Source of the DNA: Xylanibacter ruminicola 23
GTDB lineage: Bacteria > Bacteroidota > Bacteroidia > Bacteroidales > Bacteroidaceae
Direction of reading: 5' to 3'
Assembly (NCBI RefSeq): GCF_000025925.1
Contig: NC_014033.1
Coordinates: 1,650,001-1,682,000, forward strand
Length of the DNA stretch: 32,000 nt
How positions within the stretch are numbered: position 1 is the stretch's first letter; each line of letters opens with the position of its first letter. The notes under the pieces were generated by a model that saw only the letters and a list, made by a program, of their open reading frames with translations, made no database searches and was not told where the DNA came from. Below, one piece after another: positions 671-29,856 of this stretch. Both the position numbers and the translations under genes were made by a program.

Positions 671-702
671 AATGCAGATAAAAATATTAGTTTAACTAGA
701 TA

Positions 703-1749: not shown

Positions 1750-1768
1750 AATAGCAAAAATTTCGTTC

Positions 1769-2767: not shown

Positions 2768-2783
2768 TACGAATTATGTCATA

Positions 2784-3758: not shown

Positions 3759-3770
3759 ATCAATCTACAA

Positions 3771-4670: not shown

Positions 4671-4691
4671 TTGTTATTATCTAATAGATTG

Positions 4692-4722
4692 CAAAAATAA
4701 ACATATTTTTCGATATGACAAA
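4692..4722 (-). promoter_or_regulatory. Bacteroidetes sigma-A type promoter for the GT2/ATP-grasp/acyltransferase operon
   Basis: The minus strand reads TTTG (4719-4722), a 19-nt spacer, then TATTTTTG (4692-4699). The -7 box ends 21 nt upstream of the ATG at 4670 and matches the TTTG / TAnnTTTG consensus. Confidence 0.55.
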
Positions 4723-4751
4723 AATTTCATGAACATTTTTACAGACTTGTA

Positions 4752-7562: not shown

Positions 7563-7576
7563 AATTTCTATATAAT

Positions 7577-7584
7577 AATCGATT
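7577..7584 (-). promoter_or_regulatory. Degenerate copy of the conserved palindromic leader motif (core AATCGATT)
   Basis: AATCGATT lies 14 nt upstream of the ATG at 7562, the same spacing as at 11806-11813 relative to the ATG at 11791. The flanking arms are partly degenerate (TTGAATCGATTATT). Confidence 0.4.
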
Positions 7585-7588
7585 CAAC

Positions 7589-9655: not shown

Positions 9656-9667
9656 ACGCGTCAAAAT

Positions 9668-9683
9668 ATTTAATAGATTAAAT
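9668..9683 (-). promoter_or_regulatory. Conserved palindromic leader motif ATTTAATCTATTAAAT
   Basis: Arms TTTAAT/ATTAAA around a CT centre (minus strand), 12 nt upstream of the ATG at 9655. Near-identical to 11802-11817. Confidence 0.45.
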
Positions 9684-9700
9684 TATTTCTACATAATACA

Positions 9701-14071: not shown

Positions 14072-14281
14072 ATTGCTATTGATGATTAATTACGGATGCA
14101 AAGATAATAAATAAAAATATGATTTCCAAAAGAAAATAATAAAAAATAATGTCATAACGTCATATTACGTATAATTTACTGATTTCCAAGATGTTAATAT
14201 ATGATATCATGATGTCATAACAATAATTATGATGTCATATACCAATCACACTGATAAGTGTTAGAATATATTTCTTCGGCA

Positions 14282-14318
14282 GAAACACAGTGTTTCCAAT
14301 GGCGAAACACTGTGTTTC
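14282..14318. promoter_or_regulatory. Twin perfect 15-bp palindromes GAAACAC-N-GTGTTTC, centres 22 bp apart
   Basis: GAAACACAGTGTTTC (14282-14296) and GAAACACTGTGTTTC (14304-14318) are separated by caatggc. Each has 7-bp perfect arms, and the second is the exact reverse complement of the first. Confidence 0.6.
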
Positions 14319-14465
14319 GATTGATGGGACATAGTGTACTGATAATTAGAATAATGATAGCAGGCCTAAATATGACGTTAAGAAAAATACAATCATATAA
14401 TATCATCATTTATAAATCACTAAATATCAATAAGTTATTTCAGAAATGACATTATGAAATTAAAA

Positions 14466-14497
14466 TTTGGATATTTCACAGAAAATTTGTAACTTTG
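14466..14497 (+). promoter_or_regulatory. Promoter of small Cys-rich paralog A
   Basis: AAAATTTGGAT with TTTG at 14466-14469, a 20-nt spacer, then TAACTTTG at 14490-14497. The ATG follows at 14521. Confidence 0.6.
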
Positions 14498-14520
14498 CAC
14501 CAACAAAACAACCATACTAT

Positions 14521-14955
14521 ATGAATAAAGAAGAATGCCTCCGTGCGCAAGCCGCACATAACTTACCGTGTTTTATACACGAGTGTCCACTACACCAGAC
14601 CTGTCTGCACTGGCTAACAGGTCAATACTATGGTAGCGACTTCCATGTAGTTACCAGTGTTAATCCTTACTACCCCAACGTGAACTCACTGCAATGCACC
14701 TTGTATCAAAAGGATGAGATTGTTACCTACGCCATCGGCATTAAGCACATTTTTGATGACATTCCCTATCCTATTGCACGTATTGTTAAGAAACGCCTCA
14801 TCGCACTCTTTTCGCGTAAGCGTTTCTACGAGTATCGCAACGGCACACGTCCCATTCCTCCAAAAGACCAACAGCACATTGCCCGTATCTTCCACGAAGA
14901 AGGTTGGGATGGAGAAATCCGCTACGACGATTGGAAAGAAGACTATCAGTGGTAA
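14521..14955 (+). CDS. Small Cys-rich protein of unknown function, paralog A (about 145 aa)
   Basis: The track ORF begins at a TTG (14467), which lies inside the predicted promoter, so the ATG at 14521 (MNKEECL...) is preferred. It aligns by eye with the 143-aa ORF at 28385-28816 on C-x4-CP-x4-CL, VNP, C.(L/F)Y, F.R..(Y/F)E.R.G.R...PKD, and Y..Y.W at the C-terminus. Confidence 0.75.
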   Translation: MNKEECLRAQAAHNLPCFIHECPLHQTCLHWLTGQYYGSDFHVVTSVNPYYPNVNSLQCTLYQKDEIVTYAIGIKHIFDDIPYPIARIVKKRLIALFSRKRFYEYRNGTRPIPPKDQQHIARIFHEEGWDGEIRYDDWKEDYQW

Positions 14956-14985
14956 GCTCTACTTTATTAGTTTTTCAGATCAAAA

Positions 14986-15017
14986 TTTGGATGTATAAAA
15001 AATAATCACTACATTTG
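14986..15017 (+). promoter_or_regulatory. Promoter of the BACON/Big_2 lipoprotein gene
   Basis: AAAATTTGGAT with TTTG at 14986-14989, a 20-nt spacer, then TACATTTG at 15010-15017. The ATG follows at 15050. This is the same 11-mer and the same spacing as the promoter at 14466-14497. Confidence 0.6.
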
Positions 15018-15049
15018 CAGCATGTAAAAAACAAACATCGTTTTATAAT

Positions 15050-17080
15050 ATGAAAAAGAATAAATTGTACTTAATGTACATAGCTCTTGCGACATCTCTT
15101 ACAAGCCAAGTATCATGTTTAAAAGCCCCGGATTTTGGCGGCATGAAGTCAGAGGTAGAGGTACCCAATGGAGCAGTAAATTACTTTAAAAACGACATGG
15201 ACTTTGATTTTGACGGCGGTTCAAAGATTGTAGCTTTCTCTGCCAACCTCAGATGGTCTATGGAAAAAACGAACACTCAAAATGGCGTAGATTGGCTCAC
15301 CATCGATCCGACTGTCGGCGGTTCAGGTAATAGCAAGGTAACATTTACAGCTGCAGAGAATAACACATATGAAGACCGCAACATGGTAGTACGCTTTATT
15401 TGTGGCGACACCATCCGCAATATCCGAGTAAACCAGAAACGCCTGGAGGCCATCACTCTAACTTCCGACGTATTCGAGGTTCCTGCTTCAGGAGGCTATG
15501 TTCATGTCGTCGTTAATCACTCGAAGGATTTTGAATTCACCATTCCTGAGAACTATAAAGGTTGGATACACCAAGCAACAGCTTCAACACGAGGTTTGTT
15601 AGACCAATCTGTTATCTCCTTCACAATCGATCCCAGCGAGGAATACGAAAAACGCGAAGGCAAGATTTACTTTACTGCAGGAGACGAGCAAGAAGTTGTA
15701 ACCGTTTATCAAGCTGGCGAGGGACAATTGGTTCTGTCGCAAAACGAATACAATCTTACTGCAGCAGAACAGGAATTTACCGTTGACGTAAGCAGTAACT
15801 ATGATTTCAGCATTGAAATGCCAAAGGTAGAATGGCTGAAAGAGAATATCAGTCAGACGCGTGGCATGTCATCGCATACACTGAAGTTCAAGGTTACTCA
15901 AAACGATGACTATAATACCCGTTCGGCTAAAATCAAGATTTACGACAAGAACAGCAATCAGTCTGAAGATATAGTTATTAATCAAGCATCAATTGGTGCA
16001 AAACTCATTTTGGACACCAAAACGTTTAGTATCAATAGCGAAAAGCAGGATCTTGACATCGACGTAATGAGTAATTTTGATTATAATGTTGACTTCCAAG
16101 GTGCCAACTGGCTCAGAAAACGCCAAAACAACACCCGTGGCATAACAAACAGGGTATTAATGTTATCAATTGACGAGAATAAGAACAATGATGCTCGTAC
16201 AGCCCAAATCAAACTGTCTGACAAGAACAGTGAAGTTGCAGAAATAATTACTATTACCCAGGGAGCAAAGAGCGGTATTGAGGTTCCAACCAAGGAGTTT
16301 GCTGTAGATGAACTTGGCGGCACCATTACCATCAAGGTAAATGCCAATGCCGATTACAAGCTGACCTCTAATAACGATTGGATTTCGATAGCAGCAAACA
16401 CTCGTGCTCTTACACCTCACGAGCATCAGGTAACCATTGCTGCACTTGGCGATGCCGAAGACAGAGATGGTACTATCACTGTATCGAACGACGCGCTGAA
16501 CTATAGTGCCACCATCACCATCAAGCAGCGTAACACCTTCTATTTCGAGACTAAGAGCATGGACATCATGGTTGGCAAGGAAAAGATGCTGTCTGTAAAG
16601 AACACCACGAAGCAGAACGTGGAATGGAGCAGCAGCAACACTGCGATTGCAACAGTTACTGACAACGGCTATGTAAAGGGCATTAACAAAGGTACAGCCA
16701 CAATAATAGCCAAGACGGCTGATGGCAAGCATACAGCAACCTGTAAGGTAAGAATTTGCGAGATTCCTGATATGATTACCATCAAGAGTGGCGGTACCGT
16801 ATCAAAGGAGGGTGATCTCCTCAAGAACGGAAGCCAGATCAAATGGGCCATCAAAAACAACAGTCCTGTTAAGATTACCCTCAAGAGTATGCAGCTCGAA
16901 GGTAAGGCATCTGGCGAACTGGGAAATGAGTATTATGCCAACGAAGATATTGCAGCCGGCAGTACTGTTACCAAGACCACAAAGATTGAAGCTGCGGCTG
17001 GGTATCACCTACCAATCACCTGTCACTTCGTATTTGTATATGACAATAAGGAATCTGAAATAGATGCCACTTACGAATAA
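15050..17080 (+). CDS. Surface lipoprotein with about five BACON domains, one Big_2 (Ig-like) domain and an uncharacterised C-terminal domain
   Basis: Signal/lipobox MKKNKLYLMYIALATSLTSQVSC. Five ~85-aa repeats follow the pattern F.v...gg......v.sN.d(F/Y)......WL.......R......l.f.v..N....(R/A)...I........e.i.i.Q, which is BACON-like. Then NVEWSSSNTAIATVTDNGYVKGINKGTATIIAKTADGKHTATCKVRI (Big_2). Confidence 0.85.
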   Translation: MKKNKLYLMYIALATSLTSQVSCLKAPDFGGMKSEVEVPNGAVNYFKNDMDFDFDGGSKIVAFSANLRWSMEKTNTQNGVDWLTIDPTVGGSGNSKVTFTAAENNTYEDRNMVVRFICGDTIRNIRVNQKRLEAITLTSDVFEVPASGGYVHVVVNHSKDFEFTIPENYKGWIHQATASTRGLLDQSVISFTIDPSEEYEKREGKIYFTAGDEQEVVTVYQAGEGQLVLSQNEYNLTAAEQEFTVDVSSNYDFSIEMPKVEWLKENISQTRGMSSHTLKFKVTQNDDYNTRSAKIKIYDKNSNQSEDIVINQASIGAKLILDTKTFSINSEKQDLDIDVMSNFDYNVDFQGANWLRKRQNNTRGITNRVLMLSIDENKNNDARTAQIKLSDKNSEVAEIITITQGAKSGIEVPTKEFAVDELGGTITIKVNANADYKLTSNNDWISIAANTRALTPHEHQVTIAALGDAEDRDGTITVSNDALNYSATITIKQRNTFYFETKSMDIMVGKEKMLSVKNTTKQNVEWSSSNTAIATVTDNGYVKGINKGTATIIAKTADGKHTATCKVRICEIPDMITIKSGGTVSKEGDLLKNGSQIKWAIKNNSPVKITLKSMQLEGKASGELGNEYYANEDIAAGSTVTKTTKIEAAAGYHLPITCHFVFVYDNKESEIDATYE

Positions 17081-17084
17081 GGCA

Positions 17085-17126
17085 TAAAAAAGATGGGAAT
17101 CGTTTTTGATTCCCATCTTCTTTTTT
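17085..17126. terminator. Bidirectional rho-independent terminator shared by the convergent surface-protein genes
   Basis: Perfect 12-bp stem AAGATGGGAATC (17090-17101) / GATTCCCATCTT (17108-17119) with loop GTTTTT. It is flanked by an A-run on the left and CTTTTTT on the right, and sits in the 44-nt gap between the two stop codons. Confidence 0.85.
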
Positions 17127-20100
17127 ACTTCACCATCACCTTCTTGCCATTCACGATGTAAACTCCCGCTGGCAATCCGCTGAATGTCGTCGTATTTGCT
17201 TTCACTTTGCGGCCTTGCAGATTGTAAACATCAAACGGCTTACCTTCTGATACCACAATGCCATTGATAGCATTCGTACCGATAGCATAGATTTTCTTGA
17301 AATCTTTCCATCCTTCGGCCTGCTTATAGGCATCAATACTTTCTGCTGGCACGTAGAGTATGCAAGTTTCCTTATTGACACCCTCGAATACCGAAGAACT
17401 GCCTCCAGCCCTCGTCAAAGCCCTGCGTGTAGCTGCGACTGCTGACAGATTGATGGGGGTTACGCAGTAAACAGTTATCGACTTCAAATTCGTACAACCA
17501 GCAAATGCTGATGCACCAATCGAAGTAATACTACTTGGGATAACAATACTGGTCAGATCTGTATTACTATCATAAGCGTTAGCTGCAATACCTGTTACTT
17601 TATAATCCGAACCATTCAGTTCAACGACCTCAGGAATAACGACGTCGCCCGACGCATCAAGTCCACTCCATATTTCCACCTCAGGAGTAGCATCTCCACC
17701 AGCAGGAACAATAATATTGTAAGCTCCAGTAGGATCATCCTCTACCGAAGTCGTAATTCCGAGAATGTTATTCGCAAACGGCTTCCAATCGGGATGATTC
17801 TTATAGGTATTAACAGCATCGTTAGGCACATTCACCGTCACATTAGCAGACGGGAACGCATCTGCGCCCAACTTGGCAGGCGATGAGCCTTCACAAGTAA
17901 TTGATACCAGGTTAACGCAACCTTCAAAGGCATTGGCTCCAATATTCTCAATACTCTTGGCAATGGTCAGCGCCTCAATATTCGACTTGCCCTTAAACAC
18001 GGCATCTCCAACCGAAGTCACAGTATATTCATCCTTGCCAATCTTGAATGTGCCATTGATTGTTACATTCTTGCCAACATTACCGACCCTTGTCAGCACA
18101 GCTTTCTTATCACCAGTCGAATAAACATAAGTCCATCCATCCACATCAGTTTGTTTACGTTCTCCCACAAATACATTCAGGAAATTCCACCCCCTGGCTT
18201 TATAATCACTTACATTATTAGAAGAAGGTATAAACAAAGTGGCATTGGTGTTGGCAAATACATTTGAAATAGAGATTGGATTCACAATTTTGCTCTCTAT
18301 CCACTTCAGCTTACTGCAAGCACTGAATACATCAGCATCGATATTCTCTACCCCAGCAGGAATAATCAGACTTGTAATAGTGTTTTTGTTAGCAAAAGCA
18401 GACTTACCAATGATTGCAACTGTATAGTTCTCACCAAGTTTAACCGAGCTAGGGATAACAACATCATTTGATGAAGCCGCGTACTTTCTTAGGATAGCCT
18501 TACACTTCCCGTCTATTTTCAGGCAATCGTAAGTGTTTCCATTGTCCACACAAACATCAACGAATTCTCCTTCTGCGACATACGAGACATTGTTCCATCC
18601 ACTTACATTATACTTTTCTTTTGCACCCTTTGGTATATATAATGTTGCATCATTGGGGAAGTAATTTGCCTCATTTTCGACAGGGTTCTCTATACTACTT
18701 GACACACGAGTGATAGCTTTACATCCGTCAAAAGCCTTCTGGCCAATGGTTGTCAACGTTGATGGTAGCCATACCGTCTTCAGATTACTGCAACTCTGGA
18801 AGGCATAGGCACCGATGGTGGTGATATTCTTAGCTATCTTCAGTTGCGTCATCTTACCCTTATTGGGGTTATTTTTAAATACCGACTCTGAAATTGTAGT
18901 AACTTTATATGATTCACCTTCAAACTCAACAGTTCCATCAATAGTAACAACTTCTTTGTCAACAGTTGTTCCAATCAAAGTGGCTGTACCAACGCCCTTC
19001 AGAAATTCGTAAGTCATACTGCCCACGGGAGCTGTTTTCTTTTCACCTTGAGCCCAGTTATCAAAATACATCCATCCTTCAGTATTCTTATACTCAGCCT
19101 TAGTAGATCCATCCTCGTCGTAAGGTATATATACCGTTGCATTCTCATAGATAGCCTTAGGGAATACATTCTTCTTAAAACTGAACAGATTATCTTTCGA
19201 TATTTTACTTGTAATGATTAATAGTTTTGTACATTGAGCAAAAACATTATCTGCAATACTCTTTAAAGATTCTGGCAAGACAATCGTTTCCACATTCTTA
19301 CAGTCTTTAAATGCATCTGTGCATATGGTAGTAACCATATACTTAGCTTCGTCATTTTTCAACTGTACGATACTCGGTATATCAACATTTTTAGTTGCAA
19401 CAACCTTAACTAACTGTGCTACCGTTTCATCCTTATCATTAATCACACATTCGAATGTCAGACCATTCAGACTTCTTTCATTTACAAAAGTTCCCTCTTT
19501 TCTTATCGGACATGCTTGCCATACTTCACTTGCATTATAGTCATCTATCGTACCACAAGGAACATATAAAGTTGAGGTAGACTTAAAGGCGGGGAATGCA
19601 TCAGAGCTCACGTTAGGAGATGCTAAAGGCGTTTTACGCATGGTACATAAATAATCTATTTCACTACAACCATAGAATGCCTTACCAGCAATGCTCTCCA
19701 ATGATTCGGGAAGCCATATTTTATTCAAGCCTATGCAACCTTGGAAAGCAGAAGCTCCGATTGACTGCACCTTCTCTCCTATCTTCAATGTCCTCATATC
19801 AGTGTTACCCTTAAAGGCATTCTCAGCTATAGCAACCACATTAAATGTGGTATTATTCTCGTCATTCTCATTTACTTTAAACGCTATAGAAGGAGGAATA
19901 ACAACATCCTCATTCATATCACTAGTCTTACCCTCAATCAATATTGCGACTTTATCTCCTGTCGCACATGTGTAATACAGGCCATCTGTACTCTGATATC
20001 GAGATCTGTCGCCCACAAGGATGTATGCAACATCCCATGTTGCCTTATAATCATTATACAAACCGGCATCTGCGATAAACAATATGGCATCAGGTTTCGA

Positions 20101-23100
20101 GAATGCGATACTGCTTGGATTAGCAATCTTGCTAACGATTTCTTTCAGGTTCGTGCAACCTTCAAAAGCATTCTCACTAATCGAAACAATATTCTCTCCA
20201 ATCTTTACCATTTTCACATCTGTATTATCCTTAAACACAGAGTTAGCGATAGAAATCACATTAAACTTTTTCTTATCCTCATCTGCCTCATTAACTTTGA
20301 ACTCTATAAAATCAGGGATAGTCACTGTGCCATTCTTATCAATGGCTTTATCCTTATCCCACACACCTATCAAGATAGCCTCACTGCCACCTGCTGTGAA
20401 TGAATAAACTAATCCATCTTCAAATTTTTTCTCTTGTCTATCTCCTACATATATATGATTTGATTTCCAACCTGCATCTACATACAAATTCTTAATATCG
20501 CTATCTGGAACATATAATAAGATATCAAACTGAGAAAGGGCGTTTAAATGCTTATTATAATCTATACAAATTATTTCTGAAAGATTGCTGCAATCTGAAA
20601 AAGCATTTTCGCCAACTATCTTCAGAGAAGTCTTAATCTCCAACCTTTTCAGATTAAGATTACCTCTAAACGCATCCTTACCAACGGCAATTACATCACA
20701 TTTAGCAGCATCATTTCCTTCTCCAAGAGTAACTTTAGAAGGTATGGTTACAATACCATCCTCATTAATACCATCCTTGGCAACCCCAATCAAGATGGCC
20801 TTGTTTCCGCTCTTTTCACTTATTGTATAGGCATATTCTAATCCATCTACATCAGGTGCAAACTTATAATCACCCTCAAGAGTATACAAGAAATCCCAAG
20901 CAGAATAAAGTTCTGCTGTACCATCTGGAACATATAATATAGCATTTGGAACTGATTGCGCACTTATTTTACTAAAAACATCAGAATCCTTAGTTTTACT
21001 GATTACCTCAGTTAAGCTACTGCAACCATCAAAAATATCGACCCCAAGATTGGTTAGCGATGCAGGCAACTCAATCTTCTTAATACTGCTACAGTTCTGG
21101 AATGCTTGCTCTTTAATTTCCTTTATTCCATTTGGCAAAACCATGCTCTCAAGATTAGTATTGCCATTAAAGGCATTAACTCCAATATGTGTCAGTGTAT
21201 TGGGGAATTCAATCTGTGTCAAGCCAGCACAGCCACTGAAAGCATCGTCACCAATCTTCTCAAGGTTCTGAGAGAGTGTGATACTCTCAAGTTTATTATC
21301 TCCCTTAAAAGTAGCTGTACTAATATTCGTAAGATTCGAAGGGAGCTTGACTTCTTCCAAATTTGTACAGTTTTGGAAAGCATAAGCCCCAACAACTTTT
21401 ATTGTAGATGGCAATTCTGCCTTTGTAATATTTTTATTGTTCTCGAACGCATATTCAGCAATAGTTGTTACATTATAGTCATTATTTCCCAATGGAATTT
21501 TATCAGGGATGACTACATCATCACTCGATGATGTTAATATCGCAGATTTACCATTGACGTCCTCAACACATATATAATTAACGTCTTTATAATTAAAAGC
21601 ATCGATAAATTCGCCCTCAAATACTTGATCCCTTTCTTCTACAAACTTATGCCAATACTTATTTTGCAAATACGCATCCTTTCTTTCAGAATGTACAATT
21701 AAATATGCAGAATATTTGGGGAATGTAGATTCACTGATGATTGGGACTTTATTAGCCAAACAACCAATATGTGTAATAGAATTACATCCTCTGAAAGCAT
21801 TGTCGCCAATTTTAACCAAAGAATATGGAAGCCAGACTATCTTAAGATTATTACAGCCATCAAAAGCATTGGCACTGATTGTCTGGACACCATCCTGTAT
21901 TTCCAATTTCTTGATTTTCGACTTATCTACATTTTTAAATATATCCTGTCCAATAGTATTCACCTCATAATACTTATTATCATATTTAACCGTACCAGGA
22001 ACTTTTATCAGGCCATCTTCATCATCCACAGCCTCTATGGATGTGATGTTTGTCAAAGTCGCCTTTTTAGCACCTGTTAAAAATTCAAATACCATTGTGG
22101 GATAATCTTCAGCAGGCGTATTAGGAATTCTTCTTCCTTCAACATAATAAGCCGAATAAGCCTTCCAACCATCTTGACCCTGATAAGCAGATATTGATCC
22201 TTCCGGAACAAAAACCTCTGTTTGTGTATTGAAAGACGCAGGGAATATATTATCATTGTATTGTATCAGGTTGCCATCTATGTCTTTATCTATATCGCAA
22301 TAGATGGTCTTTAATGCCACACTGTTGCAGAATGCACCAGCGCCAATTTCAGTAAGTGACGATGGCAGTGTCAATTCTGTCAAGCCAGTACAACCACTAA
22401 AAGCATTTTCGCCGATGGTATTAACTCCCTCTGGAATAGTCAGAATTTTAATACTATTATTCTTAGTACTACTGAATGCGGAAGCTGCAATAGTCTTCAC
22501 AAACTTTCTGCCATAATCGGCATCGTCTATGAATTCATCAACATCAACACTATTACTTGTAGCTTCAGCCTTTATCAATGTGGCTTCCGATTCACCTGTT
22601 GCATATTCATAAGTCAAACCAGTAGCGGTAGTTGGCGTGATTCTTAATCCTTTATAGATTAATGGGAATTTCTTCCATTCTACGGCATTAGCGCCATCAC
22701 CAGTATAGGCTTCAAACGAAGTCTCTGGCACATAGAGTGCAGCGAGAATTTGCCCGCTCGTTGTTTTATAGAACACATTATCACTGATAGATAGTGGATT
22801 TGCAATCTTACATGAAACATTTTTCAAGTTTGTACAAGTAGCAAAAGCATTATCTCCAATAGATTCAATACGCTCAGGTATTGTAAGATTCTCAAGTTTA
22901 CTGCTACTACCGAACGCAGATTCGTCGATGATTGTTACGGTATAAGTATTACCATTAATTGAAACTGTAGGCGGAATCACTACATCTGCTTTCGAAGTAG
23001 TCGATTTAGTCAGTATTGCCGTACCAGGAACATATTCACCTTCATCATTCTTATGGTCCAAACAGATAAATGATAATGGCTGATCAGCATCATCTGTCGA

Positions 23101-26100
23101 TTTTACATTAATAAATTTTCCCTCAAAGATTTTTCTTCCACCTTGTATCCAATAGTCTTTATTCACATAGTCATTCTTAGCACCATCGGGAACTAGTAGA
23201 TAAATTGTATTGGTTGTTTGAGGGAACGAATTATCGCTAATGTCTGCAGGAGTTTCCGCCATACATCCTATATGTGTAATAGCCGTGCAGCCCTTAAAGG
23301 CTTCAGCTCCTATGCTCGTTAGAGTTGAAGGGAGCCAAATTGTTTCTAGTTTTCCACAACCATCAAATGCATTGGCATCGATGATGGTTTGAATATATTT
23401 TTGCGGATCATCTTGAGGTCTTTGTATCTCAAGTTTCTTAATCTTCGATTTATCAACATTTCTGAAAACGCTTCCACCTATCTTCTTTACTGTATAGGTT
23501 TTGCCATCATAAAGAACATTACCAGGTATTCTTACTAGACCATCCTCTGTAACATCAAGTTCAGTTACATATTTCAATGTCGCAGTATGATCACCCGTCA
23601 TAAACTCGAAGGTCATTTTTGCATAATCACCATCGGCTTTTGCTTCAGGAATTCTTCTTCCTTCTATATAATTATCAAAATAAGTTTTCCAACCATCTTG
23701 CCCCTGATAAGCAGATATTGATCCTTCTGGAATAAATATTTCAGTTTTAACATTGAATGATGCAGGGAATATATTATCATTGTATTCTATCAGTTTACCA
23801 TCTATGTCTTTATTTATATCGCAATAGATGGTCTTTAATGCTACACTGTTACAGAATGCACCAGCGCCAATTTCAGTAAGTGTCGATGGCAGTGTCAATT
23901 CTGTCAAACCAGTACAACCACTAAAAGCATTTTCGCCGATGGTATTAATTCCCTCTTGAATAGTCAGAGTTTTAATAATATTATTCTTAGTACTACTGAA
24001 TGCAGAAGAAGCAATAACCTTCACATACTTTCTGCCATAATTGGCATCATCTATGAATTCATTAACAGTAACACTATTACTTGTAGCTTCGGCATTAATC
24101 AATGTTGCTTCTGATTCACCTGTTGCATATTCATAAGTCAGGCCTATTTCTGTAGTAGGCGTGATTCTTAATCCTTTATGGATTAATGGGAATTTCTGCC
24201 ATTCCACGGCATTAGCGCCATCACCAGTATAAGTTTCAAACGAAGTCTCTGGCACATAGAGTGCTGCTGGGATTTTTCCTAATGTTGTTTTATAGAACAC
24301 ATTATCACTGATAAAAAGTGGACTCTGTATCTTACATACTACATTTTTCAAATTTGTACAAGTAGCAAAAGCTTTATCTCCAATAGCCTCAATACTCTCC
24401 GGTATTGTTAGATTCTCAAGTTTACTGCTACCACCGAACGCAGATTCGTCGATGATTGTTACATTATATGGCTGGTCATCAAAAGTAACTTTTGCGGGGA
24501 TATCCACCTCAGCAATCGATGTTGTTGACTTTGTTAATATCGCAGTTCGTGTGATATTACTTACATTTTCACCTTCATCATTCTGTGTTACTGTTTCATG
24601 TTCCAAACAAATAAAAGTCAAAGGCCTGTCATCATCGTCTTTAGCTTTCTCATTCACGAATCTGCCCTTAAAGATTTTCTTGCCCTGCTTCCAATAGGTA
24701 TTATTGGCATAGGCATCCCCTGCTTCATCAGGAACAAGCAGATAAACGGGATTAGTTGTTTGAGCAAATGAGTTTTCGCTGATTGATGGTGGAGCTACAG
24801 CATTACATCCAATATGGGTAATAGCTGTACAGCCATTAAAAGCATTAACGCCGATGTTCTCCAATGTTGAAGGAAGCCAAACTTTATTCAAGCCAGTGCA
24901 TCCCGCAAATGCACTCTCCCCAATAGATGTAATATCAGCAACAATCTTAAGATTCTTAATTTTATTTTTTTCTGTTGTATTCTTGCACGCATTATCTCGC
25001 ACTCCAATTACACGATAGTCATTTCCAAGAATAGTAACATAAGGTTGAATTTCAAGAATATCTTTACCTTCTGGGGCACGCAACACATGAGTCAATATAG
25101 CCGTGTTGTTATTTGTAAAGAACTCATATTGCATGTTTGGGTCATTATCATCAGGGCAATTATCCTTATCACCCTCAATATACTTATCCTTAAATCTTAC
25201 CCAGCCACCTTTATTCACATCGATATAATCGTCATAGGCACCCTCTGGAATAAAGAAGCTAACCAGTGGTATTGGGTTGGAGAATACGGTTGGAGCAATA
25301 ATGGGCAAATCCAAACCAGGGATTTTACTTACGATGGTAACAATAGGACACTCGTCGAATGCCATATCACCGATAGACTTGATGCTGGCTGGTAATTTTA
25401 ATTCTTTCAAATTCGTACAGCCTTTAAATGCCATCTCACCAACATAGTTTATACCATCACCAATTTCCAACTTTTTCAAAGTCGTTTTATTTGTGAGTCC
25501 ATTATTTATGAATGCTATTTTCTTTACCTCCAAATCTTTAGTTGAATTATCCGCAGGTATAAAAACTTGTATCTCATGGGGTAAAGCTATCTCTTCTTTT
25601 TTAACCTGCAGACCTATCAATTTTGCTTTTTTACCTTTTGAACCATATAGCAGGGTGTATAATTCATCTTTATCCTTTCCCACTATTTTAAGTCCTTCAT
25701 AAGTGTTTTCTTCTTTAAAATTATTCCAACCGTCAGTTGTTAAATAACCAGTCGCATTTGGAACAAACAATGAAGCTGAATAATTTGAGAATACGTCATC
25801 TGTTATAGGGAAAGGACTACTTTCTATTTCAATGTCTGTAATGTTTGTGCAACCGTTAAAAGCTTCTGCATCAATTGCTGTCAGTGTGTTTGGCAATTTA
25901 ATACTATTAATACTGGTGCATTTTTTGAAAGCCGCCACACCAATAACAGCTATTGAGTATGATTCATTACCTGAAACTGGAGAATTAATTACCAAATCAG
26001 ATTTTCCAGATACAGGTACGCCTCTTACTAAAGCGGCTGTTTTTGAGCCTTCTCTACTCCAGCCAATATAAGTACCGGCATAAGTTTCCTCGTTACTCTT

Positions 26101-28143
26101 GAAAACCTCGATTTTTTCGCCATCAAAATATTTTGTACGGAATCCCCATCCATTGTGAGAATGGTTTGCATACAAAGTGGCGTTTACATTTGTAGATGGA
26201 AAAGCATTTGAAGCAAAAACATCAGGAGATGTACTTCTACATATGATATGATTCAGAGAAGAACAACCTTTGAATGCATTTCCATATACAAATTTAAGTT
26301 GCGATGGAAGGTTTACTATACGCAAATTCAAACAATTATTAAATGCATCACTTCCGATAACAAGATAAGGGGCTGACGATTCTTTATCATCTTCGAACGT
26401 CAACGTATAACATTTTGCATTATTGAAAACACTATTATCAACAGCAACAACCTTATACTGCCCAAGAGTCTTAGGTATAACAAGATCAACAGTTTCTTTA
26501 CTACCACCAGTTATTATAGCTTCTTTTGAGTCTGTCGAATATATATACTTCCAATCACCATCACTATCAGCAACTGGAGTGCCTTCCATTGTTAAAGCGA
26601 ATCCCGTCCAATTATAGTTTCCCTTTTTACCATTAGGAACATAAAGATATCTTGCATTGTTAAATGTTCCACTATAATCGGGCTGTATTGCAGCTTTACT
26701 TACGACTCTAACAAGTCCAGAGCAGCCACTAAATGCATTCGCACCGATAGCAGTAACATTTTCAGGGATAGTCAATTCTATTATTCCTGATTGGTTTTTA
26801 AAAGCTTCCTTGTCTATACCAGTAACTTTATAAGTTTGGGGAATTTCAACAATTCCACTTGCAGTGCATCGTAACAATGTCGCCTGTTTATCAGCATCAT
26901 TAGAAGCGTTAACGCAAACAAAAGTAAATTTGTTATTACCTTTATAAACATCATCAGTTAACATATCGCCAATAAAAATTCTGGCACCGAAAAAAGTCTT
27001 CCACGTATCATTCACATAGTCTTCTTTAGGAGCATAAAGAGTCATCATTGGATTAGCAGTAGCAGGAGGAAAACTATATTTATTGTTTGATGCATCGCAA
27101 ACAATAAGTATATCTTCCGCTTTCTGAACTTTACACCACACATGTTTTAAATTGCTGCAGCCAACAAAAGCATTTATACCAATTGTTCTCAAACTCGCAG
27201 GCAATGTAAGCAGTTCCAATTGGGCACAATTCTGGAAAGCAGACTCTCCTATCGAAATTAGTGAAGTAGGGAGAGTCAAAGAGTTTAAATTTGTCCAGTT
27301 GTAAAAAGCCCGATTACAAATTGTTTCTATACCATTCTGAATTTCAAGAGTATTGAAACTTACAAATGGATTGGTATTATTGTTTTCAAAAGCATAACTT
27401 CCGATACATACAACATCATAATCTTCCTTATTATTCTCATCTAAAACTCTTTCTACTTTGTTCTTTACAGTTATCTTGCCTGGGGTTTCTATAGAATTCG
27501 CACCCGATAACAAAGTCGCTTTTTTATCAACACTTGCACCCACATATGTAGTTCCGTCTTTCGTAAAATAATTCATATCGCCCACATATATTCTATTACC
27601 AAATATATTATTCCAATCTGTAACTAACGAATATGCAGACTTCGCTTCGGATGATGGAACATAAAGTGTTGCATAATTATTATTATTAAGAGAATTGGGG
27701 AATTTTTTTAGGATAAACTCCTGTGGTGTATTCTTAGCACATCGCACATGAGTCAAACGACCACAGCCTCCAAACGCATTTGTACCAATAGATTCCAAAC
27801 TATTGGGTAAATCTAGCAATTGTAAGTTTGAATTGTTACTAAATGCATCTTTTCCTATCGTCTTGACATTTTCCTCAATCTTTAAATATCTGATAGAAGA
27901 ATTGTCTTTAAAAGCACCCTCTCCAATAGCGGTTACATCAACACCTCCTGCTACAGGGATAGTACTAGGAATCACAACTTCCCTTTCTGGAAAGCTCTTT
28001 CCATCTACCAACGTTGCCCTTGTACCTTCATTATCAGTGATATACTGATATTTAATTCCTGTATCAGGATCCGTATAATCACTTTGGGCCATAATGGTCA
28101 TCGAGGTTAGTAAACTAAGCAATAAAAAAAGACTCTTCTTCAT
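17125..28143 (-). CDS. Giant BspA-type leucine-rich-repeat (LRR_5) surface protein with T9SS C-terminal sorting domain
   Basis: Continuous 11-kb ORF, 3,679 aa from the ATG at 28164. The ATG at 28143 gives the signal peptide MKKSLFLLLSLLTSMTIMAQS and is preferred because the -7 box ends at 28172. About 22 modules have the form V..IG..AF..C..L..(I/V).LP.SL..IG..AF.GC..L, each ending in ATLYVP....Y....W. The C-terminus FDVYNLQGRKVKANTTTFSGLPAGVYIVNGKKVMVK resembles a type-A T9SS CTD. Confidence 0.93.
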   Translation of the reverse strand: MKKSLFLLLSLLTSMTIMAQSDYTDPDTGIKYQYITDNEGTRATLVDGKSFPEREVVIPSTIPVAGGVDVTAIGEGAFKDNSSIRYLKIEENVKTIGKDAFSNNSNLQLLDLPNSLESIGTNAFGGCGRLTHVRCAKNTPQEFILKKFPNSLNNNNYATLYVPSSEAKSAYSLVTDWNNIFGNRIYVGDMNYFTKDGTTYVGASVDKKATLLSGANSIETPGKITVKNKVERVLDENNKEDYDVVCIGSYAFENNNTNPFVSFNTLEIQNGIETICNRAFYNWTNLNSLTLPTSLISIGESAFQNCAQLELLTLPASLRTIGINAFVGCSNLKHVWCKVQKAEDILIVCDASNNKYSFPPATANPMMTLYAPKEDYVNDTWKTFFGARIFIGDMLTDDVYKGNNKFTFVCVNASNDADKQATLLRCTASGIVEIPQTYKVTGIDKEAFKNQSGIIELTIPENVTAIGANAFSGCSGLVRVVSKAAIQPDYSGTFNNARYLYVPNGKKGNYNWTGFALTMEGTPVADSDGDWKYIYSTDSKEAIITGGSKETVDLVIPKTLGQYKVVAVDNSVFNNAKCYTLTFEDDKESSAPYLVIGSDAFNNCLNLRIVNLPSQLKFVYGNAFKGCSSLNHIICRSTSPDVFASNAFPSTNVNATLYANHSHNGWGFRTKYFDGEKIEVFKSNEETYAGTYIGWSREGSKTAALVRGVPVSGKSDLVINSPVSGNESYSIAVIGVAAFKKCTSINSIKLPNTLTAIDAEAFNGCTNITDIEIESSPFPITDDVFSNYSASLFVPNATGYLTTDGWNNFKEENTYEGLKIVGKDKDELYTLLYGSKGKKAKLIGLQVKKEEIALPHEIQVFIPADNSTKDLEVKKIAFINNGLTNKTTLKKLEIGDGINYVGEMAFKGCTNLKELKLPASIKSIGDMAFDECPIVTIVSKIPGLDLPIIAPTVFSNPIPLVSFFIPEGAYDDYIDVNKGGWVRFKDKYIEGDKDNCPDDNDPNMQYEFFTNNNTAILTHVLRAPEGKDILEIQPYVTILGNDYRVIGVRDNACKNTTEKNKIKNLKIVADITSIGESAFAGCTGLNKVWLPSTLENIGVNAFNGCTAITHIGCNAVAPPSISENSFAQTTNPVYLLVPDEAGDAYANNTYWKQGKKIFKGRFVNEKAKDDDDRPLTFICLEHETVTQNDEGENVSNITRTAILTKSTTSIAEVDIPAKVTFDDQPYNVTIIDESAFGGSSKLENLTIPESIEAIGDKAFATCTNLKNVVCKIQSPLFISDNVFYKTTLGKIPAALYVPETSFETYTGDGANAVEWQKFPLIHKGLRITPTTEIGLTYEYATGESEATLINAEATSNSVTVNEFIDDANYGRKYVKVIASSAFSSTKNNIIKTLTIQEGINTIGENAFSGCTGLTELTLPSTLTEIGAGAFCNSVALKTIYCDINKDIDGKLIEYNDNIFPASFNVKTEIFIPEGSISAYQGQDGWKTYFDNYIEGRRIPEAKADGDYAKMTFEFMTGDHTATLKYVTELDVTEDGLVRIPGNVLYDGKTYTVKKIGGSVFRNVDKSKIKKLEIQRPQDDPQKYIQTIIDANAFDGCGKLETIWLPSTLTSIGAEAFKGCTAITHIGCMAETPADISDNSFPQTTNTIYLLVPDGAKNDYVNKDYWIQGGRKIFEGKFINVKSTDDADQPLSFICLDHKNDEGEYVPGTAILTKSTTSKADVVIPPTVSINGNTYTVTIIDESAFGSSSKLENLTIPERIESIGDNAFATCTNLKNVSCKIANPLSISDNVFYKTTSGQILAALYVPETSFEAYTGDGANAVEWKKFPLIYKGLRITPTTATGLTYEYATGESEATLIKAEATSNSVDVDEFIDDADYGRKFVKTIAASAFSSTKNNSIKILTIPEGVNTIGENAFSGCTGLTELTLPSSLTEIGAGAFCNSVALKTIYCDIDKDIDGNLIQYNDNIFPASFNTQTEVFVPEGSISAYQGQDGWKAYSAYYVEGRRIPNTPAEDYPTMVFEFLTGAKKATLTNITSIEAVDDEDGLIKVPGTVKYDNKYYEVNTIGQDIFKNVDKSKIKKLEIQDGVQTISANAFDGCNNLKIVWLPYSLVKIGDNAFRGCNSITHIGCLANKVPIISESTFPKYSAYLIVHSERKDAYLQNKYWHKFVEERDQVFEGEFIDAFNYKDVNYICVEDVNGKSAILTSSSDDVVIPDKIPLGNNDYNVTTIAEYAFENNKNITKAELPSTIKVVGAYAFQNCTNLEEVKLPSNLTNISTATFKGDNKLESITLSQNLEKIGDDAFSGCAGLTQIEFPNTLTHIGVNAFNGNTNLESMVLPNGIKEIKEQAFQNCSSIKKIELPASLTNLGVDIFDGCSSLTEVISKTKDSDVFSKISAQSVPNAILYVPDGTAELYSAWDFLYTLEGDYKFAPDVDGLEYAYTISEKSGNKAILIGVAKDGINEDGIVTIPSKVTLGEGNDAAKCDVIAVGKDAFRGNLNLKRLEIKTSLKIVGENAFSDCSNLSEIICIDYNKHLNALSQFDILLYVPDSDIKNLYVDAGWKSNHIYVGDRQEKKFEDGLVYSFTAGGSEAILIGVWDKDKAIDKNGTVTIPDFIEFKVNEADEDKKKFNVISIANSVFKDNTDVKMVKIGENIVSISENAFEGCTNLKEIVSKIANPSSIAFSKPDAILFIADAGLYNDYKATWDVAYILVGDRSRYQSTDGLYYTCATGDKVAILIEGKTSDMNEDVVIPPSIAFKVNENDENNTTFNVVAIAENAFKGNTDMRTLKIGEKVQSIGASAFQGCIGLNKIWLPESLESIAGKAFYGCSEIDYLCTMRKTPLASPNVSSDAFPAFKSTSTLYVPCGTIDDYNASEVWQACPIRKEGTFVNERSLNGLTFECVINDKDETVAQLVKVVATKNVDIPSIVQLKNDEAKYMVTTICTDAFKDCKNVETIVLPESLKSIADNVFAQCTKLLIITSKISKDNLFSFKKNVFPKAIYENATVYIPYDEDGSTKAEYKNTEGWMYFDNWAQGEKKTAPVGSMTYEFLKGVGTATLIGTTVDKEVVTIDGTVEFEGESYKVTTISESVFKNNPNKGKMTQLKIAKNITTIGAYAFQSCSNLKTVWLPSTLTTIGQKAFDGCKAITRVSSSIENPVENEANYFPNDATLYIPKGAKEKYNVSGWNNVSYVAEGEFVDVCVDNGNTYDCLKIDGKCKAILRKYAASSNDVVIPSSVKLGENYTVAIIGKSAFANKNTITSLIIPAGVENIDADVFSACSKLKWIESKIVNPISISNVFANTNATLFIPSSNNVSDYKARGWNFLNVFVGERKQTDVDGWTYVYSTGDKKAVLTRVGNVGKNVTINGTFKIGKDEYTVTSVGDAVFKGKSNIEALTIAKSIENIGANAFEGCVNLVSITCEGSSPAKLGADAFPSANVTVNVPNDAVNTYKNHPDWKPFANNILGITTSVEDDPTGAYNIIVPAGGDATPEVEIWSGLDASGDVVIPEVVELNGSDYKVTGIAANAYDSNTDLTSIVIPSSITSIGASAFAGCTNLKSITVYCVTPINLSAVAATRRALTRAGGSSSVFEGVNKETCILYVPAESIDAYKQAEGWKDFKKIYAIGTNAINGIVVSEGKPFDVYNLQGRKVKANTTTFSGLPAGVYIVNGKKVMVK
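21918..24962 (-). repeat. In-frame tandem duplication inside the LRR gene: two units of 1,524 and 1,521 nt
   Basis: Unit boundaries fall at the repeated peptide NVDKSK|IKKLEIQ (encoded at 21909-21917 and 23433-23441) and TEKNK|IKNLKIV (~24954-24962). For example, 22257-22740 aligns with 23781-24264 at a constant offset of 1,524 nt with only scattered substitutions. A more diverged partial third unit continues below 21917. Confidence 0.85.
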
Positions 28144-28171
28144 ATCTATAGCGTTTTTATACATTTGGGGA

Positions 28172-28203
28172 CAAAGGTAAGAAAAATATCGATGTTTCCC
28201 AAA
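28172..28203 (-). promoter_or_regulatory. Promoter of the giant LRR gene
   Basis: The minus strand reads AAAATTTGG with TTTG at 28200-28203, a 20-nt spacer, then TACCTTTG at 28172-28179. This is the same architecture as the promoters at 14466 and 14986. Confidence 0.6.
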
Positions 28204-28240
28204 TTTTAAATGTTAAATCTATAAATTTATATTAGTGCAG

Positions 28241-28371
28241 GTTAGTGCGTACTGCAGTGCGCAAATAAACGTACAGCAATACGCCAGTAAGCGTACTGCA
28301 GTGCGGAAGGCGGCATACTGTAGTACGGATTAGCCGCACTACATGCGGAAACATGCCGTACTACTCGTTGA
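28241..28371. repeat. Array of six degenerate ~22-bp tandem repeats with an imperfect 16-bp palindromic core (GCGTAC-TGCA-GTGCGC)
   Basis: Cores are GCGTACTGCAGTGCGC (28246), ACGTACAGCAATACGC (28268), GCGTACTGCAGTGCGG (28290), GCATACTGTAGTACGG (28312), CCGCACTACATGCGG (28333) and CCGTACTACTCG (28355). Start-to-start spacing is 22, 22, 22, 21, 22. The array is a GC-rich island in AT-rich intergenic DNA. Confidence 0.8.
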
Positions 28372-28384
28372 GACTATCTCAGCA

Positions 28385-28816
28385 CTAATCGTTCCAATTA
28401 TAAAGCTGCTCATAGGCATCGAAGCCGAGGTGCTGCATGCCGATTTCCTTCAGAACATTCTTTATGATCATTATATCCTTGGGCGAACAAAGCCTCTCCC
28501 CTCGCCTACGTTCGAAATATCCCGTACGACCGAATTTACCTTGAAGTCTGCATGAGAACGTCTTATATTGCCTTGGCAACATCTCTTCCTGCATCTTTGC
28601 AAATCCACGAGCAAATGTCTGAGGCTCGTCTGAACGGTAGAATTCGCACTTTTCCGATGGTTCCGTAAATAAGGGATTCACTATTTGCACTATCTTGTAT
28701 TTCTTGGTTAGCACATTCGTGGCCATTTGACGAAGACAGTGAGCGGCCATCGGACAGTCAGACTTGATACAAAGTGTATAATAGTCTGGTACTTCTTTAC
28801 TACTGATTGTATTCAT
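28385..28816 (-). CDS. Small Cys-rich protein of unknown function, paralog B (143 aa)
   Basis: Homologous by eye to the ORF at 14521-14955: LCIKSDCPMAAHCL, VNP, KCEFY, GYFERRRGERLCSPKD, YEQLYNW. It starts 9 nt after the stop of the upstream 280-aa ORF, so the two are probably co-transcribed. Confidence 0.75.
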   Translation of the reverse strand: MNTISSKEVPDYYTLCIKSDCPMAAHCLRQMATNVLTKKYKIVQIVNPLFTEPSEKCEFYRSDEPQTFARGFAKMQEEMLPRQYKTFSCRLQGKFGRTGYFERRRGERLCSPKDIMIIKNVLKEIGMQHLGFDAYEQLYNWND

Positions 28817-28825
28817 ATTTGTTGA

Positions 28826-29668
28826 TTATTTAAATACTTGCGGTTTACATATCGGCACCTCCATACGCCGTATTTTTAGTTCATGAGCCTCAGTTATATT
28901 TCGCTGCATAAACTTTACAGAGAAATAGTTCATAACCCATTTCAATATGGCATCACTTTCCCAGTTCTCAATACCAACTCGTCGGGCTATGTGATGCGTT
29001 ACTTTTTCGTCTAGATAGAAAAGCAAATCCTCCTTGGCGACATATTCTGGCACCCTGTACTTTCTAGCATAGGCTTGGGTAAATTCACCGAAATAACGAT
29101 TATAATAGGCTTCGTTTAAAAATAACGTCATAAATCCTTTATGTATGCGTTTAAGAGCCTCATCGCTTGCTTCTACATGAAACTTAGGCACGTTACCAGC
29201 CAATAACATATGCATATTGATACCATGACGATGTTGACGCTGATTCTCAGAGATCTTGTCGCGATCGTTATCGTTGGCCAATGCATTGGCCTTACAATCG
29301 AATATCTCGTATGGTATAGCCGGCTCTTCAATCTCCTGGCTTGGCAAAGCCACAAAACGGTCACCCACCAAGGGCGACATAAACGCATCCATCTGATGCG
29401 TTTCTCTGTTACGAACGATACGAAAAGCTTCAGCTTTCTCTATCAGTTCTATTAGTTCCGAATCTTGCTTGAACCCGAGCGCCTTGCGCAGTTTATTAAA
29501 GTGCATGCGAGTATAGGCCAACGTTACATCGTCCATATACTCGTAAGCCCCATCGAAAAGATATTTAATCTTTCCGATTTCCGACCACGAAAGTTTATGA
29601 GCGCGCCAGTGGCGATTATAGCTGCGGGCGCTCGTAGCAGCTATAGCCATATCCGTTTTATGTCTCAT
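28826..29668 (-). CDS. Hypothetical protein (280 aa), no family recognised
   Basis: Long ORF with ordinary, non-repetitive composition, no signal peptide and no TM segment. Tightly coupled to the downstream paralog B gene. Confidence 0.65.
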   Translation of the reverse strand: MRHKTDMAIAATSARSYNRHWRAHKLSWSEIGKIKYLFDGAYEYMDDVTLAYTRMHFNKLRKALGFKQDSELIELIEKAEAFRIVRNRETHQMDAFMSPLVGDRFVALPSQEIEEPAIPYEIFDCKANALANDNDRDKISENQRQHRHGINMHMLLAGNVPKFHVEASDEALKRIHKGFMTLFLNEAYYNRYFGEFTQAYARKYRVPEYVAKEDLLFYLDEKVTHHIARRVGIENWESDAILKWVMNYFSVKFMQRNITEAHELKIRRMEVPICKPQVFK

Positions 29669-29690
29669 CGATTAATTTTTATTTATTGAT

Positions 29691-29729
29691 TAGGCCCTAT
29701 TTATAGGATAGGGCCTATCGTATAGGCCT
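29691..29729. repeat. GC-rich inverted repeat TAGGCCCTAT / ATAGGGCCTA plus a third partial copy
   Basis: Perfect 10-bp arms at 29691-29700 and 29708-29717 with the 7-nt loop TTATAGG. TATAGGCCT recurs at 29721-29729. The element lies in the divergent intergenic region, 23 nt upstream of the ATG at 29668. Confidence 0.6.
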
Positions 29730-29856
29730 TTAAAGAAAAGTTCGGTATTTCCCGAAGTTGATTATCTGGCTACAAATATACACATTTTCTATGAAACCAC
29801 CAAATAATCTTCCACATTTTTTGGATAATTCAAAGAAAAAAACTACCTTTGCAGCA

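Follow-up and report, generated by a model that had tools for sequence, protein, structure and literature searches.

Palindromic repeats that occur beside a small gene are known from the REP/REPIN-RAYT partnerships of Proteobacteria, in which a small single-copy gene adjoins a lineage-specific palindromic repeat and more copies of the repeat are found in intergenic DNA. RAYT genes are typically flanked by these repeats on both sides. Comparable arrangements are seen with the centromere-binding proteins (F SopB-sopC, R1 ParR-parC and the omega heptad arrays of pSM19035), where the gene for a DNA-binding protein adjoins a tandem inverted-repeat array; omega has arrays at more than one site. Iteron origins (lambda O-ori, P4 alpha and SaPI pri-rep-ori) and the OR1-3 operators of lambda CI provide two further parallels, the former with three to five dyad repeats at a spacing of about 22 bp, AT-rich DNA and a primase-helicase gene, and the latter with three palindromes at a spacing of about 22–24 bp in a divergent promoter region. 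Some likeness to each of these is seen in a 32,000-nucleotide stretch of the Xylanibacter ruminicola 23 genome (NC_014033.1, positions 1,650,001 to 1,682,000 of the forward strand; hereafter, the window), the last two around the first of a pair of small paralogous genes. Both genes belong to the Pfam family PF19555 ("DUF6078 family protein" in NCBI annotation), a family without a described function, and genes of this family are accompanied by tandem arrays of palindromic units with a 22-bp period. REP-RAYT and the centromere and initiator proteins are the closest analogies, and some features that define each of them were looked for and are lacking here. The reading that we favor, and that we hold to be evenly poised between right and wrong, is that DUF6078 is a non-enzymatic, metal-binding protein that would recognize its cognate palindrome array.

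A preliminary description of the window had identified two small, Cys-rich open reading frames (ORFs) as paralogs on the basis of shared motifs, and both the motifs and the relationship proved to be real. The ORF at 14521–14955 on the plus strand (copy A; 144 aa) and the ORF at 28385–28816 on the minus strand (copy B; 143 aa) are 27% identical over 128 aa (BLASTP, E 3e-16), and profile searches place both in the uncharacterized DUF6078 family, with scores of 126.3 and 116.6 bits, respectively, against a gathering cut-off of 27 bits. The profile is matched at full length, from position 17 to 145 (copy A) and from 8 to 145 (copy B) of 145. Four cysteines (C17, C22, C28 and C59 in copy A numbering; C-x4-CP-x4-C...C) do not vary in an 18-sequence alignment and reach 99% conservation among 134 family representatives; the two window proteins carry the same four, without difference from the family, in its stand-alone architecture of about 145 aa. 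No N-terminal hydrophobic stretch occurs in either copy. The cytoplasmic Zn-binding protein proposed at the outset stands in part: the proteins lack a signal peptide and are cytoplasmic, and the four conserved cysteines fit a metal site, while metal binding itself is something that we infer.

DUF6078 is a large family: an exhaustive profile search (E up to 0.001) yielded 1,247 clusters at 50% identity. Among the 150 clusters listed from this total, nearly all are stand-alone proteins of about 140–165 aa, the remainder being fragment-like, and no domain fusion was seen among them. NCBIfam, PADLOC and PHROGs gave no match for either paralog, a sequence-profile search of PDB was likewise without a match, and a literature search found no paper in the library covered that mentions DUF6078. 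Across the family representatives, the conserved residue types are limited to Cys, Gly, Pro, Leu, Asp and Trp, and no catalytic-type residue, His or Tyr is conserved family-wide. This confinement argues for a structural or binding protein, not an enzyme. An AlphaFold2 model of copy A, based on a 146-sequence alignment (pLDDT 95.8, pTM 0.82), comprises a mostly irregular N-terminal region bearing the cysteines and a C-terminal beta-alpha-alpha-beta unit; an earlier model from a shallow alignment had a pLDDT of 78.5 and yielded no Foldseek matches.

The evidence that carries the favored reading is the linkage of gene and array. The preliminary description had noted palindromic arrays beside both paralogs, and these turned out to be the key feature of the locus. 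When autocorrelation was computed for lags of 8–40, one flank had its best lag at 21 or 22 for 46 of the 50 unique DUF6078 genes, compared with 8.8% of 2286 control windows. Moreover, period-22 repeats called by Tandem Repeats Finder were about 57-fold denser near DUF6078 genes than elsewhere (0.71/kb vs 0.012/kb). The family was sampled in Prevotella/Xylanibacter, Bacteroides, Parabacteroides and Treponema, and the linkage was found in Prevotella/Xylanibacter, Parabacteroides distasonis (two genes with two motifs), Bacteroides finegoldii and Treponema saccharophilum, as well as in four human-gut contigs, with up to eight units. The motif of the array is constant inside one protein clade and different among clades. 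The array also accompanies the DUF6078 gene despite changed neighbors, as in L009 and L030/L035 (loci of the comparison are numbered with L), and is found even where the next gene is a convergent tRNA synthetase; therefore, the arrays are not merely promoter elements of the downstream gene. Mixed half-sites (e.g., CGCACT..AGTACG) are common in the arrays, which is easier to reconcile with degeneracy at a position recognized by a protein than with a paired RNA stem.

In the lineage of copy A, two to four GAAACAnnGTGTTTC palindromes occur exactly 22 bp apart, at a distance of about 200 bp upstream of the gene, at all 12 loci (the window, L001–L009, L046 and L056). This linkage persists down to a protein identity of about 40–57%, and the array is retained even when the upstream gene is p280, a gene discussed below, and not a helicase. 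The array is kept in alignments while the surrounding intergenic DNA diverges, which supports the view that it may be under selection. In the window, array A (14282–14340) lies about 200 bp upstream of copy A and is composed of two perfect 15-bp palindromes, GAAACACAGTGTTTC at 14282–14296 and GAAACACTGTGTTTC at 14304–14318, at a spacing of 22 bp, together with a degenerate third unit. It is embedded in an AT-rich (26% GC), divergent intergenic region (14140–14460), where short repeats of the (A/C)GTCATA type are inverted around the array (I4, 14152–14166/14369–14383; I5, 14190–14205/14392–14407) and are kept in the alignment of relatives. Copy A has a putative promoter of its own on the plus strand (14466–14497), read from the sequence and conserved in the alignment, with a –33 TTTG at 14466–14469 and a –7 TAACTTTG at 14490–14497.

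In the other lineages, the array starts 15–60 nt after the stop codon of the DUF6078 gene. The motif of the B clade is CGYACTnnAGTRCG, and an array of this type occurs downstream of essentially all B-clade genes, while the motifs of other clades include GCCAC/GTGGC, GGTACC, GGAACC, TTGCCA/TGGCAA and GTTTC...GAAAC types. Array B of the window (28248–28349) consists of four to five imperfect CGYACTnnAGTRCG palindromes with 22-bp spacing; it begins about 35 nt past the stop codon of copy B, in a region that has a GC content of 42% and is not AT-rich. Neither the GAAACAnnGTGTTTC-type motif nor the CGYACTnnAGTRCG motif occurs in the window outside its own array. A second period-22 repeat, CACTCGAGTCAAACGATCGATT (3.4 copies), is present at 11336–11410 of L022, about 950 nt from the DUF6078 gene, and could be a B-type orphan array in its vicinity. 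Outside Bacteroidota, a DUF6078 gene occurs with a AAACAnnnTGTTTC array in the rumen spirochaete T. saccharophilum (L065; pTS1, 1922–2450), which suggests horizontal transfer of the gene-array unit.

Arrays are also found away from the gene. A metagenome scan for two GAAACAnnGTGTTTC units (GAAACA type) 22 bp apart gave at least 120 contigs, grouped into at least 43 site clusters. Among the matches listed, the orphan arrays contain two to eight units, are intergenic in 40 of 43 site clusters and occur in every gene orientation, and a sensitive search found no DUF6078 gene remnants at them. Their neighbors are housekeeping genes such as queC, queF, mnmA and mnmG. In the P. distasonis TSDC17.2-1.1 assembly, which is deposited as many "plasmid" records, the array type of one DUF6078 gene occurs at 25 places and that of the other at 8, all of them in P. 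distasonis and nearly all without an annotated gene under the match. Six of these sites were inspected and are genuine arrays of four to six units that lie between unrelated genes and have the 22-nt unit and the terminal sequence in common with the gene-linked array. Rfam gave no match at the gathering threshold in the window or at orphan arrays. Many arrays, among them the orphan arrays of L179, L124, L129 and L077 and the one in the 14140–14460 region of the window, have clusters of 7–9-nt short repeats at their flanks. These are of GTGATAG, GTGACA or CTATCAC types (GTCATA in the window) and are frequently inverted between the two sides of the array, which suggests that arrays and flanking repeats together form a larger composite non-coding element of about 400–600 bp.

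According to the favored reading, DUF6078 would be a stand-alone cytoplasmic protein with a four-Cys metal site (Zn or Fe-S), for which the gene-linked array would provide a "home" site and the dispersed arrays further targets. The two genes of the window would then differ in specificity class, A being matched to GAAACAnnGTGTTTC and B to CGYACTnnAGTRCG, and the specificity would presumably be encoded where the protein sequence varies. With units two helical turns apart, dimers would line up on the same side of the double helix, which makes cooperative binding along the array the likely mode. The frequent presence of a VirE/VapE helicase gene (with or without the BT4734 PrimPol domain) or of p280 beside DUF6078, in 19 of about 33 contexts as detailed below, counts in favor of this reading and points to descent from, or joint action with, a replication-type module that stems from mobile elements. 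The mixed half-sites and the position of the A-lineage array upstream of the promoter favor recognition of DNA over RNA. As to what array binding might accomplish, candidates include autoregulation, local effects on neighboring genes, an origin-like or architectural role with VirE helicases, and the maintenance or spread of repeats in a REPIN-RAYT-like manner; any one of these, taken singly, falls well short of an even chance.

Several points weigh against this reading. The case for the binding of DNA by DUF6078 is drawn from linkage and sequence, and the A-lineage proteins, with a pI of 6.1–7.0, are not basic. The structure prediction and fold search that the preliminary description had proposed did deliver a confident model, for which Foldseek returned no significant match in PDB or BFVD; as modeled, then, the protein matches no known fold in the databases searched. 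Matches in which the DUF6078 helices overlap small helix-turn-helix (HTH) proteins in part did recur and are non-significant. Among the GAAACA-type matches listed, a DUF6078 ORF occurs within 700 nt in 5 of 43 site clusters and is missing from about 38, and therefore something else could bind the arrays. For the B. finegoldii and Treponema examples, where data are limited, no dispersed cognate arrays were seen. Finally, the B-type array occurs in the 3′ untranslated region, so a role at the level of RNA could conceivably apply.

Two of the analogies mentioned above can be weighed by comparison of features. As in partition cassettes, a tandem array lies directly beside the DUF6078 gene. In contrast to such cassettes, there is no ParA- or ParM-type NTPase beside it, its neighbors being VirE/VapE, p280 or unrelated genes; moreover, the context is chromosomal, arrays are dispersed by housekeeping genes, and the Foldseek results are not ribbon-helix-helix or ParB-like. 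The likeness to lambda CI extends to weak, non-significant hints of a small helical DNA-binding domain in the DUF6078 model, but there is no significant HTH match, the array is mostly downstream of the gene, and orphan arrays exist.

A wider interpretation, which we offer tentatively and consider unlikely, is that DUF6078 and the 22-bp arrays constitute a hitherto unrecognized repeat-protein partnership of Bacteroidales, with a spill-over into rumen Treponema. Such a partnership would be comparable to REPIN-RAYT and yet be based on an unrelated Cys4 protein of novel fold, and each clade would maintain, spread or use its own dispersed intergenic arrays, possibly with VirE/PrimPol replication proteins. 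DUF6078 is already catalogued; the gene-array linkage, the match between motif and clade, the dispersed cognate arrays and the partnership with VirE or p280 appear to be undescribed, and a literature search found no paper linking REP-type repeats to DUF6078. For a family that counts about 1,250 clusters (at 50% identity) among the Bacteroidales of gut and rumen, the array linkage provides a testable hypothesis of array binding. The dispersal of arrays, displayed by at least one genome, would indicate that major gut bacteria harbor a class of intergenic repeats for which no description was found. If the arrays affect neighboring genes, replication or genome architecture, they would also bear on strain variation in Bacteroides and Prevotella.

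An alternative that we regard as unlikely is that a VirE/VapE helicase, whether or not it has a BT4734 PrimPol domain, uses DUF6078 as an accessory subunit for binding an origin or iterons, the array and short repeats being the origin of an integrated or domesticated mobile element. The gene divergent from copy A (11915–14071, minus strand) encodes a 718-aa BT4734-like PrimPol with a VirE/VapE helicase (PF08800, 132 bits; PF05272, 113 bits), called PrimPol by PADLOC and DNA helicase/primase by PHROGs. Both BT4734-like PrimPols and VirE ATPases are counted among the replicases or helicases that serve mobile elements and defence systems (PMC5862659, PMC11724360). A manual tally covered about 33 independent contexts, and in 19 of them DUF6078 has a VirE/VapE gene or p280 beside it. 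The VirE/VapE family contributes 12 of these, in three different orientations: as a 700-aa BT4734-PrimPol-helicase divergent from the DUF6078 gene, as a helicase-only protein of about 400 aa encoded directly upstream, or as a 700-aa protein encoded directly downstream. The low GC content of the intergenic region of copy A and the short inverted repeats around its array are equally what an origin would offer.

The helicase-only VapE genes are themselves bracketed by repeats. At eight loci (L014, L018, L019, L022, L024, L026, L028 and L031), the gene upstream of DUF6078 is enclosed by four tandem 11-nt repeats in inverted orientation and by a longer inverted repeat (in L022, at about 8376–8427 and 9804–9848). 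The repeat reads AACATATACCT upstream and AGGTACATGTT downstream, with the lineage variants GAGTGAGGTGTT in L019 and CCCTCCCGTTTA in L026/L028. This arrangement looks like helicase iterons or an invertible or transposon-like cassette, and it too can be counted in favor of a replication module.

Such a module is nonetheless hard to reconcile with much of the family. Many DUF6078-array units lack a helicase or VirE gene nearby, and the combination of a primase/helicase gene with AT-rich repeats, present for copy A, is absent for copy B, with its array region of 42% GC, and for many others. No integrase or other mobile-element genes flank the module of the window, and the mobile-element context of iteron origins is wanting. 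Gene maps and comparison with L001–L004 reveal synteny of the copy A locus among strains, a pattern suggestive of vertical inheritance. A search of 2.9 million viral contigs of IMG/VR with a narrow pattern found no A- or B-lineage DUF6078 gene, and a search of viral contigs for GAAACA arrays found only four. Orphan arrays, moreover, are not beside VirE genes. An origin of the DUF6078 genes in phages was considered and rejected because the "Bacteriophage sp." matches are unverified virome contigs that resemble chromosomal DNA; the same is true of the "plasmid" and "phage" matches generally, which are unverified, chromosome-like contigs.

The second recurrent partner, p280, is a 280-aa protein of unknown family encoded at 28826–29668 on the minus strand, upstream of copy B. 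It lies directly upstream of DUF6078 in 7 of the roughly 33 contexts, mostly closely spaced or overlapping. The pair recurs in L009, L013, L016/17, L020/23, L021, L025 and L032; the gap measures –4 to 9 nt in five loci and 139 nt in L009, and the genes overlap in L016/17. No confident match for p280 was found in Pfam, NCBIfam, PADLOC, PHROGs or PDB; Pfam gave a sub-threshold match to DUF6625 and, in two of nine homologs, a weak one (E about 0.01) to Prim-pol 4 (PF18188, PPL4), while a comparison with the BT4734 PrimPol domain by hhalign was negative. In the window, the gap between p280 and copy B is 9 nt and that between copy B and the next large gene is 220 nt, an arrangement from which copy B can be assigned to a predicted operon with p280 and not with that gene. 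The putative promoter and conserved 5′ leader of this operon occupy 29695–29780 on the minus strand, with a –7 TATATTTG at 29773–29780 and the leader elements TTCGGGAAATACCGAA at 29741–29756 and CCCTATCCTATAAATAGGG at 29695–29713. A TTCGG-GAAATA-CCGAA hairpin and a palindrome, CCCTAT..CTATAAATAGGG, are conserved in the leader at a minimum of six of the seven loci compared; the leader has no Rfam match, and RNAalifold indicated strong sequence conservation with little covariation.

Another possibility, and one that we consider quite unlikely, is that DUF6078 catalyzes or directs the spread of its cognate arrays, which would then be non-autonomous selfish repeats in the manner of REPINs. The general picture of a single gene beside one copy of a lineage-specific repeat, with further intergenic copies in the same genome in P. 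distasonis, resembles that of the RAYTs, and the orphan and gene-linked arrays of P. distasonis have a conserved terminal sequence in common. However, DUF6078 is unrelated to the RAYTs. It has no Y1/HUH (IS200/IS605-like) transposase motif, no Tyr motif or other conserved catalytic residue, no Pfam transposase match and no fold match. The repeats also differ, being tandem arrays of 22-bp palindromic units and not REP doublets, and the array is found on a single side of the gene (46 of 50 genes), unlike the repeats that typically flank RAYT genes.

A still less probable proposal extends the one made in the preliminary description: DUF6078 would be a dedicated regulator or chaperone of the surface protein encoded just downstream of it, and the array would be the operator or upstream activating site of this cargo. 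Each small ORF does precede a large surface protein. Copy A is followed by an ORF for a BACON x5/Big_2 lipoprotein (15050–17080, plus strand; identified by Pfam and sequence reading), which begins MKKNKLYLMYIALATSLTSQVSC in lipoprotein-like fashion, and copy B by that for a 3679-aa LRR_5 (BspA-type) surface protein (17125–28164, minus strand; identified by profile match), with 23 LRR_5-matched stretches and a signal peptide. The convergence of these two genes on a common bidirectional intrinsic terminator was correctly described, the terminator (17090–17119) having a 13-pair stem with an A-run before it and a T-run after it. The targeting of the LRR giant to the type IX secretion system (T9SS) is less certain: the repeats and the signal peptide are there, but the sorting domain, TIGR04183 at the extreme C-terminus, scores 18.4 bits against a cut-off of 23. 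It is also true that the B-type array often lies 60–150 nt upstream of the next co-directional promoter (in the window, L011, L013, L025, L028, L032 and L052) and that some of these next genes encode secreted proteins, such as DUF4842 (L011 and L032) and Porph_ging (L052).

An operon of small and large genes can be rejected because each gene carries its own promoter. TAnnTTTG is the Bacteroidetes-type –7 consensus, and boxes of this kind separately precede copy A (14490–14497), the BACON gene (TACATTTG at 15010–15017), the LRR gene (TACCTTTG at 28172–28179, minus strand) and p280 (29773–29780, minus strand). Across the comparison as a whole, a downstream gene was called in 52 contexts and is convergent in 19 of them; a signal-peptide-like start was found for 17 of the 33 co-directional downstream neighbors, compared with 40% of 427 background genes. 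Once orthologous duplicates had been removed manually, a secreted co-directional neighbor remained in about 8 of 35 contexts, which is roughly the chance expectation. These counts, together with the L001–L004 and L032 comparisons that follow, therefore reveal no enrichment of DUF6078 genes beside surface or T9SS cargo. The arrays that persist beside a convergent tRNA synthetase and the orphan arrays that adjoin housekeeping genes likewise speak against the proposal.

The relatives of the strain make the point directly. L001 (strain Ga6B6) is the closest genome locus, with about 92% DNA identity where it aligns to the window, and it is one of four close relatives (L001–L004) that lack window positions 14956–29843. 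In blastn alignments, 14955/6 joins straight to 29844 in all four, so that the genes for UbiA and endonuclease III come right after copy A. The missing 14.9-kb strain-specific segment, which was also traced in gene maps, contains the BACON gene, the LRR giant, array B, copy B and p280. In L032, an ortholog of copy B (90% identical and accompanied by p280) precedes DUF4842 proteins and not the LRR giant, which is paired with BACON on the opposite side, and in KHT3 (L011), a lone B-type DUF6078 gene occurs at the equivalent chromosomal site in front of DUF4842 genes. Thus, the stretch between UbiA/Nth and the polysaccharide genes is a hypervariable surface-protein region; at the site from UbiA/Nth to DUF4842, the LRR giant, BACON, DUF4842, VapE, p280 and A- or B-type DUF6078 vary in combination and order among the window, L001–L004, L011 and L032. 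Both paralogs sit in this region, and it is incidental that they adjoin the BACON lipoprotein and the LRR giant. Copy B either came with the 14.9-kb segment or was lost from the relatives along with it. The mirrored small-paralog-plus-cargo layout, once put forward as a system, came about by accident, through a strain-specific segment within a variable region, and the array linkage corrects the tempting inference that DUF6078 controls the giant adhesin-like proteins adjacent to it.

Finally, it is very improbable that the transcribed array functions as a structured RNA partner or decoy, like type III toxin-antitoxin repeats or Csr-type sponges, for although B-type arrays lie 15–60 nt past the stop codon and the array of L030/L035 precedes a terminator-like hairpin, the A-lineage array is upstream of the gene's own promoter, the stems would have 2-nt loops, mixed half-sites disrupt base pairing, no Rfam family is found at the arrays, and orphan arrays occur in all orientations between genes. 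A ToxIN-like type III toxin-antitoxin system in the strict sense was rejected because the array is unsuitably placed, either upstream of the promoter (A) or after the stop codon (B), and PADLOC gave no match.

Other features of the window lie at the borders of the variable region. A polysaccharide-type cluster on the minus strand (1–5579) encodes two acyltransferase_3 proteins, a TupA-like ATP-grasp protein, a GT2 and an esterase. It is followed by three tandem paralogous DUF4114/DUF4842 proteins of 622, 691 and 696 aa (5694–11791, minus strand), whose genes come after the PrimPol-helicase gene in the direction of transcription and are oriented like it; an LRR giant takes the place of this trio in L004 and L006. 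At the other border, the mechanically assigned start of the UbiA-family ORF at 29758–30735 on the plus strand (TTG at 29758 or ATG at 29791) is probably too far upstream, as the relatives begin at MIHYIRLIRPLQW, right behind a TACCTTTG –7 box; the matching position in the window is about 29857.

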